Notes: generated by a model from the sequence alone, not told the origin. A stretch of DNA of 64,000 bases from Amoebidium appalachense (GCA_963693365.1 CAVNZM010000011.1:1302001-1366000); one strand, 5' to 3'; numbered from the stretch's first letter, positions 54,101 to 63,100 are shown. Program-made: numbers and translations.

Positions 54101-57100
54101 CACACTCCAACCTCTACCGCATAGATGGCCTTACTGCTTGATACCCTCACAAGACCGACATCCACAGGTTTTGCACAGAACCACCTCTTTCTTAGTTGAT
54201 AACTATTTCATAGTGTTCTGTTAACAAAGCCCCTCCCTACACGAATCTTGTATCATCATTTCAACAGATGCCACACATAACTCAGCTGACCCTCCCCCCC
54301 CCCCCCCCCCCCGACTCCCCCCCCACTCCTCCCCCTCCCCCTGGCCCCACCTTTTTTTTCAGATGATGACCTTCTTCTTTCCAAGCCCCTGCCCTCCAAG
54401 CAAACCAGCACAGTCACAAGCAACCGTCCAGCCTTTTCATCTCCCGTTTTTGCTCCGCCACTCGCACCCATGCCCCCATCGCCTGCCCAACCTCCTACCA
54501 CATCTACCCCTACCACACCGAATGCTGGACCACAGAATGTGTTTCCATCGCAGGTATGTATGGCCGGTGGAGGTTTTGTGGTTTAAGTCTTTTAAGTGAG
54601 AGACATGTGAAGTCGTTGTCATTTTTTACAAAATAGCATGCACGGAAAGGGCTGCGGCGGGAAGGGGGGTGGGGGGAGGGGGAGGAGGAGGGGATAGCCG
54701 AGGGAGGGGGGCGGGGGGGGGGGGGAGGAGGGGAGGGGGGATATAGAATTTGAGGGCAACATGTAAGAGTTTTCTCATCACCCACCAGCACGGCAAAACC
54801 ACCCCCCCTCCCCCCCCCCCCCTTCCCCTCTCCCTCTGCATGCAAATTCATGTTATACACCGTTATTACTGCGCTGTGTGCCCCCCCCCCCCCCCCCCCC
54901 CCCCCCCCCCCCACACACACACACACTTGCTGCATTCACCACATGTACTGCACGACTTGCTAAAACATTGCTTAACAAAGGCTACTCGTTTAGACTCTTG
55001 CACGACCAAATGCACAGCTTTCTCGCCACACACCCGCATATATACCGTGGCGTTCACTCCTCTCACATACTCTCCATCATCACTAAAAAGATCAACACTC
55101 CCTAGGCCCCCACTCTATCCCGATCCCCCCCCCCCCCCCCCCCCCCCCCCCCCACCACCACCAGCCCCTACACCTCTCCCCCCCCCCCTCCCTCCTCTCT
55201 CTCTCCCTCTCTCTCTCCCCCTCTCCCTCTCTCCCCCCTCCCTCCCTCCCTCACTCACTCTCTCTCTCTCTTTCGCTCTTTTTTCTCTCTCTCTCTCTCT
55301 CTCTCTCTCTCTCTCTCTCTCTCTCTCTCTCTCTCTCTCTCTCTCTCTCTCTCTCTCTCTCTCTCTCTCTCTCTCTCTCTCTCTCAGTCTCTCTGTCTCC
55401 CTCTCTCTCTCTCTTTCGTTCTCTCTCGTTCTCTCTCGTTCTCTCCCTCCCTCTCTCTCTCTCTCCGTCTCCCCCTCTCCCCCCCCCCCCCCCCCCCCCC
55501 TCTCCCCCCGCTCCTTTTCCCAAACAATTCCCCCGCCGTTCTTCTTTCTCAGCCGGCTAGGTTTTTGGGTTGCCTGGTAAGTTTTGAAATGGAGCTCTCG
55601 TCTCTGATCTGTCCACCACAGGGTTTTTTTTTTTTTTTTTTTTTTTTTAAAAAAAAAAAATCTTCTCCCCCCCCCCCCCCCCCCTCCACCCCCTTTTCCC
55701 CCTCCCTCCCTCCCCTCCCTTCGCCCTTCGCCCTTCCCCAGCCTACTCCCCCCCCCCCCCCCCCCCCCCCCCTCCCCCCCCCCTTCCCCTCCTACCTTCT
55801 TTCCCCCCTTCCCCCCCCCCCCCCCCCCCTCCCCCCTGGCCAAACCCTGTATACACTCTTCTCATCAGCAGGTCTCTAACCCACTCTGCAGAACGTTTTA
55901 CGCATTTCTCCCCTTGGAAAACTTGGTCGTTGGTGCGTTTTTGTCTGATATCTAACGACTCTGCAGGGTGCCTTGAGACTATTGACACTCTAACATTCCC
56001 TCCCCTCTCTTACTTCCCCCCCCCCCCCCCCCCCCCCCCCCCCCTTCCCCCTCCTCCTTCCCCTCCCATTTCCTCTGCACACTCAACAAGGTCTTAACCA
56101 GCTCTGCACATCGTTAGTCACAATCTTCTCTCATATATGAGAGAATGATCGTATTGGTACGATTTGTCTAATATCTGACGATTCTGCAGCATCCCTAGGA
56201 CCCCCCTCCCCCCCCCCCCCCCCCCCCCTCTCTCTCCTCTCTCTCTCTCTCTCTCTCTCTCTCTCTCTCTCTCTCTCTCTCTCTCTCTCTCTTTTTTTTT
56301 TGCGCCTGTTGTTTTGCTTGTCATTTGTTGTTCTGGCTGATTACCTGTAATCTTCGCTTATTTATGTGTGTGTGTGTGTGTGTATGTATGTTGTGCGGGG
56401 TTGCACACACCCGTGTCTACTTTTCTTCCTACTGTTTTTCTCTCCACACACTTCATCTGTCCACTTCTGCATACCCCCTCTCATAGCTATAGACACACTT
56501 CACACATTGCGTTACACGCACGCATGCACACACCGCTCTGTTGGCGACAGCTCCCTTGGAACCCATGTGGCATGTTACCCGCCGGCATAACATAACTCGG
56601 ACTGTCGATTTGGCTTTTTTCAAGCCCAAAGCAATGGGTGATACCATATTTCCGGCTGACATCCGGGGGCATAGCTTTCTGTTCGAAGACGTTAAAGTTC
56701 CGCCCTAGTAAGCGTGTTACTACCCTGCGGCGTGGGTCAAATCTCATATTTTCCCCTCTGATTGCGAATTCTGCGGCCTTCGGGACTTAATTCTTTTCAG
56801 CTGGTGTAATATGTTAGTCAGGGAAGTATCGAGTTAGGTAGCGACGGGGGAGCTTCCTAGAAGCCCCGTCTCCTGAGTTCCTATCTATATTTTTCTTGCT
56901 TCTGCTTACTGCTACAACTTTAACCCCCGGCCTTTCCCACTGCCCTTGCCTGCATAAGCAACCCTGCTCGTGTCTGATCAAGACGGGTGACCTACCCATG
57001 TTCAAGTGAAACAGTATCTGAGTTGGGTTTCGTTAACGAGGTGAATAGGTCGAAACTCGGGTACTGTGGATGACGTGGGCCCCCCTGAGATGGGCTCTGC

Positions 57101-60100: not shown

Positions 60101-63100
60101 GTACCTTATGGAGGCTTGGTGTGTCTTGTGTGAATTGAAGTGTGTGTACCCAAACGTGTATGGCTGAGTATGTGTCAGGAGTAGAATGGCAAGGAAGAAA
60201 TAGTGAACAGGAATAGAGAAGGGGACACGATGAAAATGGTATGTGCATAAATACCGAACCCCCTTCCTCTCCTCCTCCGTCACCAACTTCCCCACCTCCC
60301 TTCCTGTCGCCTTGTAACGGGCGGGCACCCCTCCCCGCTTTCCTCCCCCCTCCCCTTCCCCGGCTCTCTTCTTCCTTGCTGCCTAGCAAGCATCGCCCAC
60401 AGATTTCACTGCCCACAATACTGCTAACTCCCTTTCTGTGGCAGGATATGGACGGGTGATGGTGGATGGTGGTCGCTATGATGTGGATGTGTTCCAACGG
60501 AAACAACATGCCGTATTCTGGGAGGAGCAGCCGGCAGAGGTGCCCCCCCCCCCCCCCCCCCCCCCCCCCCCCCCCCCCCCCCCCCACACACACACACACA
60601 CATATGCACCGTTTTGCTCACCTTGCTTGCATAAGCAACCCTGCTCGTCTTTGATCAAGACGGGTTGACCCGCCCAAGTTCAGTTGATGCTGCTGTCTGA
60701 GTTGGAGCGTCGTATATACGCGGGCTAAGGGGTCGAAACTCAGACGCAATTGATGACTTGGGTCCTCCCTGAGGATGGGCTCTGCTTATGACGCATACTG
60801 TGCACATGGCTGATGTTGCATACTTGAATGTTTGCCTTTGCATGTGTCCTGCACCATGCTTCTCGTCGTGTATGCGTATGCGTACTTCTTACCGAGTTCC
60901 GCATTCAACCCGCCCCCCCCCCCCCCTCCCCCCCAACCACCTTGAGATCAACTTGTATGCTGTGTGCTGATATGCACTATACTCATTATACTCCCCCCCT
61001 CCCCCCCCCCCCCCCCCCCCCCTCTCCCCGCCTTTACTTCCATGCAACCGGGCATGGTGCTCTGTGTCGTGCATCTGTAAGCACATACGCATTTTTCGCT
61101 GCACTGCTTTAGTTCGCACACACATCTTCACCGTTTGGCTCACCTTGCTTGCATAAGCAACCCTGCTCGTCTTTGATCAAGACGGGTTGACCCTCTTAAG
61201 TTCAGTTGATGCTGCTGTCTGAGTTGAACAGTCGTATATACGCGGGCTAAGGGGTCGAAAACTCAGACGCAATTGATGACTTGGGCCCTCCCTGAGGATG
61301 GGCTCTGCTTATGACGCATACTGTGCACATGGCTGATGTTGCATACTTGAATGTTTGCCTTTGCATGTGTCCTGCACCATGCTTCTCATCGTGTAAGCGT
61401 ACTTCGTACCGTGTTCCGTATTAAAATCCCCCTGCCCCCCTTCTGCCCACTGCCCCCCATCCTTCCTTGAGATCAATTTGTGTGTGCAATGTGCTGATGT
61501 GCACTACATTACTTCATCCCCCCTCTCCCCCCTCCCCCCTCCCCCCCCTCCCCCTCTCCCCCCCCCCCCCCCCCCCCCCCTCCCCCCCCCCCCCCCTTCT
61601 CCTCAAACCAGGTGGTGCGTGCCACGTGGTACACGACTACGGCCGATGAGGTACGGCCCTACTCCGAGATGGTGGCTGCCGCCCTTGAGCTCGAGTTCAA
61701 AGTCGCCTACATGTCGGGTACACATGCCACCCCCTCCCTCCCCCGCCCCCCCCACCCATCCCCCCCCCCCCCCCCCCCCCCCCCAGCTCCACTCCTCCCC
61801 TCCCCCCCCCCCCCTCCCCCTTCCCTCACCCCCCCCCCCCCCCCACACACACACACCCACCACCACCACCATCACCACCACCACCACCACCCCCTCTCCT
61901 TCCCATTCTCCCCCCTCTCTCCCTCGCCCTCCCCCCCTACCGAACCACCGACCCGCCCACCCCATGCTTTGCCTGCCTCCACCCCCACACCAAACCATGG
62001 CGTTACATACAGACCTTCTGATTGCTTCGAACGCAAGTATACATGCAGCCACGTATCACGATGCAGTCTTGGACACATCCACAGTGCACGGAGCCACACC
62101 CACACACAAAGCACATACATCTTTATGCCGGGGGACCGCTTTGTACAAAACTGATAACCAACTATCGTCCCCTTCCTGGCCTCTCCCTCCGGATCCCCAG
62201 GCACGTGCTCTTCGTTGAAGATGTGTCCGTAATTGAAATGGCGGCTGTGCAAAACCACCCCCTCCCCCCCACCGTTCACCCCGGCTCCCCCCCCACACCC
62301 ACACCCACACGCTTACTCACCCACACCCACACGCACACAGGCACACATGCACACCAACACCCTCAGTACACTGTGTGTCGTCACGTTGTAATCAGGTTGG
62401 GTTGGTCTTGGCCCTGGGAGCTTTCATTGTGTATCTTCGCAGTTTTATAACCAATCACTTGAGCTCCTTGCATTCATTGATGCACACTGCATTGCAGGTG
62501 CATGGGGTCGACGTGTGGACATTGACAGTGGTGAGTGTGTGGTCATGCACTCAGAGAAGGTGATGGCCCACTATGTAAGGGGGGAGGACCACAAGAGCAC
62601 CGCACGTACGGCCGTCAGAGGATTCGACAAGTATAATACCTTCCCCCCTCCCCCCCCTCCCCCATCCCCTCCATCCCCACGTCCCCCCCACACACACGTA
62701 AGTACACAAACAAACACAATAGCATTCATAAGCACAAACAGGCACTCACACACACAAGCCCACACACACACACACACACACACACACACACACACACACA
62801 CCGAATAAAGCTAACACACACACAACACACCTACACACACACACACACACACACACGAATAAAGCTAACACACACACAACACACCTACACTCACACGCTC
62901 GCACACACACACAAATAAGGCTAACACGCACAACAAACATACACTCACACACTCGCACACACACACACACACACAAATAAGGCTAACACACACAACACAT
63001 ACACTCACACACTCGCACACACACACAAATAAGGCTAACACGCACAACAAACATATACTCACACACTTGCACACACACTCACACAAATAAGGCTAACACA

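Follow-up and report, generated by a model that had tools for sequence, protein, structure and literature searches.

A predicted split-stem hammerhead core at the 3' end of an abundant, probably Penelope-like retroposon

The analysed window, a stretch of 64,000 nucleotides, contained four plus-strand copies (A to D) of a structured repeat, all recovered by nhmmer (E 4e-79 to 1e-60) where a first-pass annotation of the same DNA had put them. By splice-site reading they lie in three introns of a gene that is presumably SEC23IP, a label taken from WWE-domain matches in the window. The exon at 57270-58083 was covered by a contig of spliced appearance from X12 which, like X14, is a guessed RNA data set. 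The earlier places and introns stood; the earlier unit size of 170 nt was too short, since copy A spans about 56398-57190, and the element proved to be of high copy number, with six additional 5'-truncated copies in the 64-kb window, all on the minus strand. The copies are as follows.

56398..57190, plus strand: copy A, second high-copy subfamily; 5' end uncertain
58160..58569, plus strand: copy B, old member at single-copy depth with a decayed core; 5' end approximate
60595..60909, plus strand: copy C, 5'-truncated retroposon copy with a C/(CA)n run before it and a C run after it
61030..61428, plus strand: copy D, longer C-type copy, head-to-tail behind C; 5' end approximate
2145..2225, minus strand: 3'-end-only copy, diverged
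2417..2468, minus strand: 3'-end-only copy, flanked by two C runs
3040..3185, minus strand: C-type copy, 5'-truncated, 93-94% identical to C and D, flanked by two C runs
3385..3547, minus strand: partial diverged copy with GUC at the site, UUGAGAA at the core and GAAA absent
8600..8702, minus strand: weak diverged fragment (nhmmer E 0.14, below inclusion)
19225..19300, minus strand: weak diverged 3' end with a C run next to it (nhmmer E 1.2, below inclusion)

Each copy represents the 3' module of a retroposon that is abundant, truncated on its 5' side and ends at (C)n, which bears out the earlier suggestion of a retroelement terminal structure. In two DNA runs, 3310 and 3271 contigs fell on 324 nt of copy C, and the summed depth over copy A was 2-10 x 10^5 compared with 30-52 on the adjoining exon. 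Contig joints ran back from the 3' end into the module, 5' truncation was variable, and partial head-to-tail tandems occurred, C preceding the longer D. Subfamilies carried unrelated upstream bodies; that of copy A is about 550 nt long and apparently non-coding. A C run of at least four directly adjoined the end of six of the ten listed copies (A, C, D, 3040, 2417 and 19225), and a C or CA run preceded the start of copies C, 3185, 2468 and 2225. The intronic sense-strand position is explained by the bias of poly-C runs toward the sense strand.

HDV-like ribozymes are marked by a nested double pseudoknot with P3/L3 and by a conserved catalytic C in J4/2. The sense intronic place, the TGATGA- and CTGA-like words and the GG-hairpin-GGCTAA order in C would suit such a ribozyme, a snoRNA or another intron-hosted ncRNA, two of which the first-pass annotation had proposed. 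However, the would-be catalytic C of GGCTAA is lost (GGTGAA in A, GGAGAT in B), no P3/L3 was found, and the Rfam match that had been sought was absent over the copies (E up to 5 across 55000-64000; at gathering thresholds, only a tRNA-Ser in the whole window). The thousands of contigs, the truncated copies and the poly-C-driven orientation point to a mobile repeat instead, and this reading is already largely refuted, with very little probability left to it.

A LINE or SINE family that had captured the fold could also have produced a fixed 3' end and 5' truncation, which fit non-LTR elements equally well, and the signs of a Penelope-like element (PLE) were not seen: no RT or GIY-YIG frame was found in the window or upstream of A, and neither a strand-changing joint (inverted 5' copy) nor a 30-40-bp tail occurred among the joints and loose ends listed. 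Such a carrier is nevertheless highly improbable, as a poly-A tail was absent, no Pol III A or B box was detected upstream of A, B or D, Rfam revealed no tRNA, 5S or 7SL head (the 5' ends being approximate), and, in the available sections of Craig et al. (2021; PMC8557442), the fold matches the 3' ends of Naiad elements and the target matches that of Chlamys elements.

Several searches concerned the upstream body of copy A and the distribution of the family. The end of a LINE ORF2 was considered for this body and rejected, no meaningful Pfam match being obtained. A word-based protein search yielded none of 356 candidates, a beta-helix ORF search found nothing, and HMMER returned eight matches built from many short stretches, the three checked being repeat surface proteins. 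Scans of viral contigs and prokaryote genomes gave no matches, and a metagenome scan gave a single one (L001), by chance within a bacterial gene. A- and C-type sequence was covered in X12 and X14, as contigs from which level, strand and ends are not readable; copy B was uncovered in both.

Copy C contained a complete hammerhead core, comprising a GUU cut site, GAAA, CUGAGGA and stems I and III. Its parts, all on the plus strand, are listed below.

60630..60678, plus strand: 5' strands, with the closing helix 60630-60637 (pairing with 60783-60790), CCC 60639-60641, a hairpin at 60643-60665, GACCC 60667-60671 with the predicted partner of C11.1, and CCCAAG 60673-60678 (pairing with 60757-60762)
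60695..60707, plus strand: block S, with the 5' strand of stem III 60695-60702, G16.2-U16.1-U17 60701-60703 and the stem I strand GGAG 60704-60707
60730..60745, plus strand: block G, with the 3' strand of the crossing helix 60730-60734 (C11.1 = 60734), GAAA 60735-60738 and the 3' strand of stem III 60738-60745
60765..60779, plus strand: block C, with the stem I strand CTCC 60765-60768, CUGAGGA 60769-60775, a U, and GGG 60777-60779 pairing with 60639-60641
60791..60909, plus strand: 3' tail common to the copies, in which a TACTTCGTAC-like word, GCATTCAA and finally a run of C make up the element's fixed 3' end

The blocks follow the order S, G, C (60701-60703, 60735-60738 and 60769-60775), that is site-GAAA-CUGANGA, non-nested, as in type SGC. 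CUGANGA adjoins stem I (GGAG/CUCC) in C, and GAAA with A15.1-U16.1 opening stem III is present in C and A and absent in B. Stem III has eight Watson-Crick pairs in C and 13 pairs in A, and the NUH triplet between stems III and I is GUU in both, so that by hammerhead analogy the cut is predicted at 60703/60704. Stem II was not found directly between A9 and G12: the best partner of C11.1 is the upstream G60667, and A9 runs into another helix in C, although a weak classical stem II is also possible there. In the model, the crossing helix would replace stem II by means of an upstream strand, so that two extra helices would open the core between A9 and 10.1, while the CCCAAG/CTTGGG helix would tie stems I and II. 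The earlier proposal of a ribozyme-like fold was supported in part: the class is the hammerhead, whose core had been overlooked, and not HDV-like. Nested type I, II and III hammerheads, twister, TPP, RNase P/MRP, SRP, U3 and tRNA-like folds were also considered and dropped.

Among the window copies, only C has an intact core. In A, CUGAGGA is short by one G, which most A-type contigs retain (71% of the depth aligned across the place in X4, 86% in X1, 90% in X12 and 100% in X14). In B, G replaces A15.1 and an insertion displaces CUGAUGA at 58469; in D, stem I is broken and GAAA has an additional A; and the copy at 3040..3185, located in an intron of a UNC13-like gene, is without blocks S and G. 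Identity to the core of C was 96% in D, 74% in A and 63% in B. A descriptor of the literature core, with spacing limits that were set with copy C in view, matched once on both strands of the 64-kb window, namely at copy C (nine pairs in stem III, four in stem I, five in the crossing helix), and the other three of the four copies (A, B and D) failed it. In 20,000 dinucleotide shuffles of C, the loose core appeared in five and the core plus crossing helix in none.

The closing helix, the first hairpin, CCCAAG/CTTGGG, GTCTGAGT/ACTCAGAC and the crossing helix pair in both C and A, as previously listed, but copy B breaks many of these pairs and its own MFE structure is a different fold; two apical hairpins as previously written have 2-nt loops and must each lose one pair. 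MFE values for the plus and minus strands were -64.6 and -57.7 for C, -54.0 and -44.0 for A, and -63.1 and -51.7 for D, and equal for B; the plus strand was favoured by G.U wobbles. Folding z-scores were -3.0 for C, -1.1 for A and -3.6 for B. General covariation across the copies is modest: when the MFE structure of C was applied to the other copies, P for the pairs kept was 0.088 on A, 0.69 on B and 0.56 on D, and with the structure of A applied to C it was 0.026. Covarying changes were found in stem I, which has A-U in C and D but G-C in the other two copies, in the crossing helix, where C-G is replaced by U-A in A, and in stem III, where A has A-U for G-C. Two-sided changes occurred in 6 of 39 pairs, a number reached by 8 of 500 shuffles, with four sequences only and the structure taken from C. 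In the C family, three of the four most variable core-region positions (60672, 60708 and 60763) are unpaired in the model (hand-estimated P ~0.06), and the absence of variants at 13 core positions is not significant in a family so young (hand-estimated P ~0.55).

In the available sections of Eckert et al. (2023; PMC10085705), type-SGC hammerheads (HRIMA-1 and variants) share with copy C the site-GAAA-CUGANGA order with a full core, pseudoknotted stems and an additional helix tying stems I and II. They differ in that their stem II strand follows CUGANGA, whereas here it would lie upstream, with two extra helices inserted at A9/10.1. Stems I and II are linked by about 3 nt in type SGC and by 22 nt with a hairpin (60708-60729) here, the whole measures ~80 nt there and ~160 nt here, and SGC RNAs are in no known organism's genome, in contrast to the eukaryotic genomic repeat described here. 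According to the same sections, the present fold resembles the type-CSG layout reopened between A9 and 10.1, with the same tying helix, but its chain break falls inside block C, which the six-permutation scheme excludes. No description of this split form was found in the literature.

Copy C could instead be an ordinary type-SGC hammerhead, in which GGCUCU (60778-60783) pairs with GGGGUC (60729-60734) as stem II after a 2-nt insert, and the crossing helix is an alternative fold. C can form six such pairs, and its insert stays inside the 1-2 nt allowed in the sections available of Eckert et al. However, three of the six are G.U and A retains only four, whereas the crossing helix, which the first-pass annotation had already drawn, consists entirely of Watson-Crick pairs, is 100% paired across all four copies and has one two-sided change; nor is an equivalent classical stem II apparent by eye in the Naiad records that File S5 (PMC8557442) gives in parts 8, 10-11 and 24, as far as those parts extend. 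The crossing helix is better supported as the replacement of stem II formed by an upstream strand, and an ordinary SGC hammerhead is unlikely.

These results suggest, with a probability of roughly two in three, that the complete hammerhead core of copy C follows a pseudoknotted, non-circularly permuted order in which stem II is split, that it likely cleaves itself at GUU (60703/60704), and that the fold serves as the 3' module of an abundant retroposon, probably a Penelope-like one (Naiad/Chlamys-type). In vitro cleavage of type-SGC and type-CSG hammerheads is documented in the available sections of PMC10085705; these also assume CUGANGA within 1-2 nt of stem II, an assumption that the split at A9/10.1 breaks, and therefore activity is not transferable from those assays. 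Self-cutting of copy C is likely from the model. The 5' ends were not piled up at the cut site among the 24 of 445 and 24 of 711 loose ends listed. Two X14 contigs ending at 57026, near the predicted cut of A (57024/57025), were set aside as a graph bubble because they end 30 nt from a variant at 56996.

The fold may, with a lesser but appreciable chance, be a hammerhead derivative kept to bind or prime the reverse transcriptase of the element, cutting only with protein or not at all. Cleavage within the module would detach the body from the 3' end that all copies share, an expressed gene tolerates an intact sense copy in one of its introns, and the core is covered by a competing hairpin in the MFE structure of C (CCUC/GAGG, 60764-60774), which would bury it. 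The hammerhead of an anole PLE cut only with protein and was dispensable for insertion in vitro, and the main template of that element is unprocessed RNA (PMC11167929). Against this, both high-copy subfamilies retain all catalytic letters and an NUH site, and so, in the available part of PMC8557442, do distant Naiad records, although their helices have no sequence in common.

Among the available parts of File S5 of Craig et al. (PMC8557442), the same helix order, in other sequences, was recognized by eye near the 3' end of seven Naiad records (one in part 8, three in parts 10-11, one in part 12, and Naiad_Obim and Naiad_Ovul in part 24), and a type-CSG form in seven further records (parts 13-16). 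In the sections available, Naiads are reported to be without canonical hammerheads, and the Naiad_Ovul record is flagged 'HHR_half_core'. Both Naiads and the present element display 5' truncation, partial tandems and microsatellite targets; as far as those records go, Naiads are animal elements with mostly (TA)n targets and GUA sites in the split-layout records, whereas the present element has a GUU site, a (C)n/(CA)n target, a host that is probably non-animal and no protein seen. A possible kink-turn (60684-60687/60749-60756) fitted C and the Octopus records by eye, and did not fit A.

Chlamys elements target (C)n and (CA)n according to the available sections of the same paper. Together with the non-autonomous MRC1, they also resemble the present element in the sharing of 3' ends only among non-autonomous families and in head-to-tail insertions, and one Chlamys record has a similar last word followed by a C run. 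The split hammerhead was not found in the Chlamys passages available, and the few hammerheads listed there are type I. The fold is Naiad-like, yet the target preference is Chlamys-like, within the extent of these sections. A 3' motif of Chlamys-2_tObl with similar words was not counted, being nested and without a downstream CUGANGA in the record available. Animal non-LTR retrozymes, as presented in the available part of 10.64898/2026.07.22.740005, are likewise non-coding hammerhead repeats derived from PLE pseudo-LTRs, but theirs are type I, form tandem arrays and avoid introns, whereas the present copies are dispersed, truncated and common in introns.

In the proposed mechanism, C11.1 would pair with the G of the upstream GACCC and therefore A9 would lead into a short helix, closing the gap together with the first hairpin, with CCCAAG/CUUGGG presumably holding stems I and II together. 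Transcripts of tandem copies or of host introns may be cleaved a single time in every module, which would release RNA of unit length, possibly as circles; a putative RT/GIY-YIG partner would copy this RNA into (C)n/(CA)n runs, starting at the fixed 3' end.

New features here are the targets, (C)n/(CA)n, and the host, which is probably not an animal. If the proposal is true, a hammerhead core can withstand a chain break at A9/10.1, which falls outside the six permutations of the published scheme, and the fold occurs not just in animal elements at (TA)n but also in a family that targets (C)n and whose host is probably single-celled, with an intact copy in sense in the intron of an expressed gene. 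It would also explain the reported lack of canonical hammerheads in Naiad-type elements, because descriptors and Rfam models would be blind to the split wiring. Copy C offers an intact substrate of natural origin, 170 nt long, in which the cut site is predicted exactly. More tentatively, at somewhat less than even chance, this would be a seventh hammerhead topology, in which the chain break interrupts the 'indivisible' CUGANGA and two additional helices close it, and an active ancient ribozyme of N-terminal-endonuclease Penelope-like elements. As animal Naiads would share it with a poly-C-targeting family of a non-animal eukaryote, it would predate animals or have crossed kingdoms, and it may process element RNA into the units that make pseudo-LTRs.

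Copies A to D, four repeat copies on the + strand (A approximately 56398-57190, B approximately 58160-58569, C 60595-60909 and D approximately 61030-61428), were recovered by nhmmer in the window where the first-pass annotation had placed them, within three introns of one gene with WWE-domain exons, plausibly SEC23IP. Most of the helices listed there pair in C and A, although two apical hairpins as written need 2-nt loops. The proposed common fold did not extend to B, in which many pairs are broken and the copy's own fold differs, and the claimed covariation was modest when the MFE structure of one copy was scored on another (P = 0.026 for A on C, 0.088 for C on A, 0.56 for C on D, and 0.69 for C on B). 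G.U wobbles in the copies favoured the + strand, and an Rfam search over the copies returned no match.

The fold of copy C is predicted from its sequence to be a hammerhead core, with the following elements:

60695-60702/60738-60745, + strand: stem III, then G-U-U
60701-60703, + strand: G-U-U between stem III and stem I
60704-60707/60765-60768, + strand: stem I
60735, + strand: GAAA
60769, + strand: CUGAGGA

The blocks follow the order site, GAAA, and CUGANGA, which Eckert et al. (PMC10085705) call type SGC. Beneath G12, the crossing helix of the earlier annotation (GACCC/GGGTC) provides the G-C pair, but with a strand that lies upstream; A9 enters a GGG/CCC helix instead, and the gap is filled by the first hairpin. 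A weaker classical stem II can also form in C, which counts against the split stem and would fit a classical SGC hammerhead, a reading that we regard as quite unlikely. A hammerhead descriptor, its spacing chosen with C in view, had a single match across both strands of the window, and 20,000 shuffles of C yielded the loose core in 5 cases and the core plus crossing helix in none. Across the alignment of the four copies, pairing holds in 89.6% of cells, and two-sided changes occur in 6 of 39 pairs (matched by 8 of 500 shuffles), among them a switch from A-U to G-C in stem I and one from C-G to U-A in the crossing helix; coming from four sequences and a structure taken from C, these changes support the putative core without amounting to proof. 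The other readings of the first-pass annotation, such as a permuted HDV-like ribozyme, are hardly credible. Most A-type contigs retain one core G that copy A in the window has lost; stem I is broken in D, which also carries an extra A, and the core of B is decayed.

The element is a mobile repeat. Contigs aligned to copy C numbered 3310 and 3271 (DNA sequencing runs X4 and X1, respectively), and summed depth over A was 2-10 x 10^5 from approximately 56398 to 57206, compared with 30-52 over the next exon; B had a depth of 31-44. Copy number, which is not depth itself, is estimated at hundreds to thousands. A- and C-type copies have approximately 260 nt in common at the 3' end and unrelated upstream bodies. 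The upstream body of A gave no hits in protein searches, no RNA-family head in Rfam, and no Pol III box in a motif search. A LINE or SINE as the carrier is very improbable. Joints at which the 3' end is followed by module sequence again indicate head-to-tail partial tandems, and C and D form a head-to-tail pair in the window. A short spacer repeat lies behind both C (60935-60990, +) and D (61455-61515, +), 78% alike vs. 93% for C and D; it may represent a tail or a separate family that ends in poly-C. By eye, a related pair of stretches at 55840-55990 and 56075-56200 (+), each ending at a C run, is possibly a further small repeat family. A satellite of approximately 55-bp units (62800-63290, +) resembles, as its reverse complement, the 5' flank of A (56346-56397). 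In the presumed RNA runs X12 and X14, an abundant contig at 57037-57111 has 740 nt of other sequence fused to a truncated and altered piece of A type; it may stem from an expressed gene that contains an A-type fragment or from a third subfamily.

A further six partial copies are on the - strand, of which four pass the nhmmer inclusion threshold and two fall short of it; five of the six are within introns of the first of these genes:

343-9462, - strand: UNC13-like C2/MUN gene, 13 exons matching P0010
63414-63495, + strand: tRNA-Ser(AGA) gene

The 5' cut points of these six copies vary, whereas the 3' end is fixed in most of them and is followed by a C run. The copies are in sense orientation because C runs have a strand bias: across the window, runs of at least 8 C are confined almost entirely to the sense strand of introns and change strand when the gene direction changes. 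Some of these runs may be targets or products of the retroposon. The UNC13-like gene has only distant similarity to mammalian Munc13 (best E 1.6e-17), and one exon is a 98% match to a 1114-aa transcriptome protein that is itself distantly like mammalian Munc13; this distant likeness suggests a host outside the animals, and a non-animal eukaryote is probable. Elsewhere, 21828-23086 is a recent tandem duplication (copies approximately 830 bp apart, 98.6% identical), and word searches found no relatives of two beta-helix (Chlamydia-PMP-like) exons at 17775-19007 (-) and 32006-33039 (+).

To the observed core, repeat anatomy, and target, the mechanism would add cleavage at 60703/60704, which would free RNA of unit length, or circles, from transcripts that read through tandem copies or introns, and an unseen GIY-YIG/RT partner that may start copying into C runs at the fixed 3' end. 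An active split-stem hammerhead of a Penelope-like element (PLE)-type repeat is our preferred model, with a probability of roughly 0.68. Counting against it, the MFE structure of C has a competing hairpin over the core, no partner protein was seen in the window, and the joints and loose ends listed included no tail or inverted copy, nor the loose ends a pile-up at the cut site. In the anole PLE, the hammerhead needed protein in order to cut and was not essential in vitro (PMC11167929). A fold that serves recognition without cutting is unlikely.

Craig et al. (PMC8557442) describe Naiad and most Chlamys elements, two PLE groups, as lacking canonical hammerheads, and give (C)n and (CA)n as Chlamys targets. 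Their consensus files were read manually by eye, as a non-exhaustive sample around short words at GAAAC (all 17 places viewed for one word, all 18 for another, 25 of 30 for a third, and 9 of 14 for a fourth). The helix series of C recurred identically, in unrelated sequences, in at least 7 of 54 Naiad records, and a complete hammerhead of type CSG (CUGANGA, site, GAAA) stood at the record ends of at least 7 further ones, including Naiad-1, -2, and -3_Nbra (File S5, parts 13-16); the split form was in none of the Chlamys passages viewed. In the published passages available, SGC and CSG hammerheads come from environmental sequence only, CSG from two metagenome sequences. No description of split stem II or permuted hammerheads in Naiads was found in the literature searched, which left most subscription papers and the supplements of Eckert et al. 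outside, nor in the passages seen of PMC13725137, PMC13159263, PMC10162972, and 10.64898/2026.07.22.740005. The window contributes a GUU copy that is intact, two subfamilies at high copy number whose stem I covaries, insertion at (C)n/(CA)n targets, and a host that is probably non-animal.
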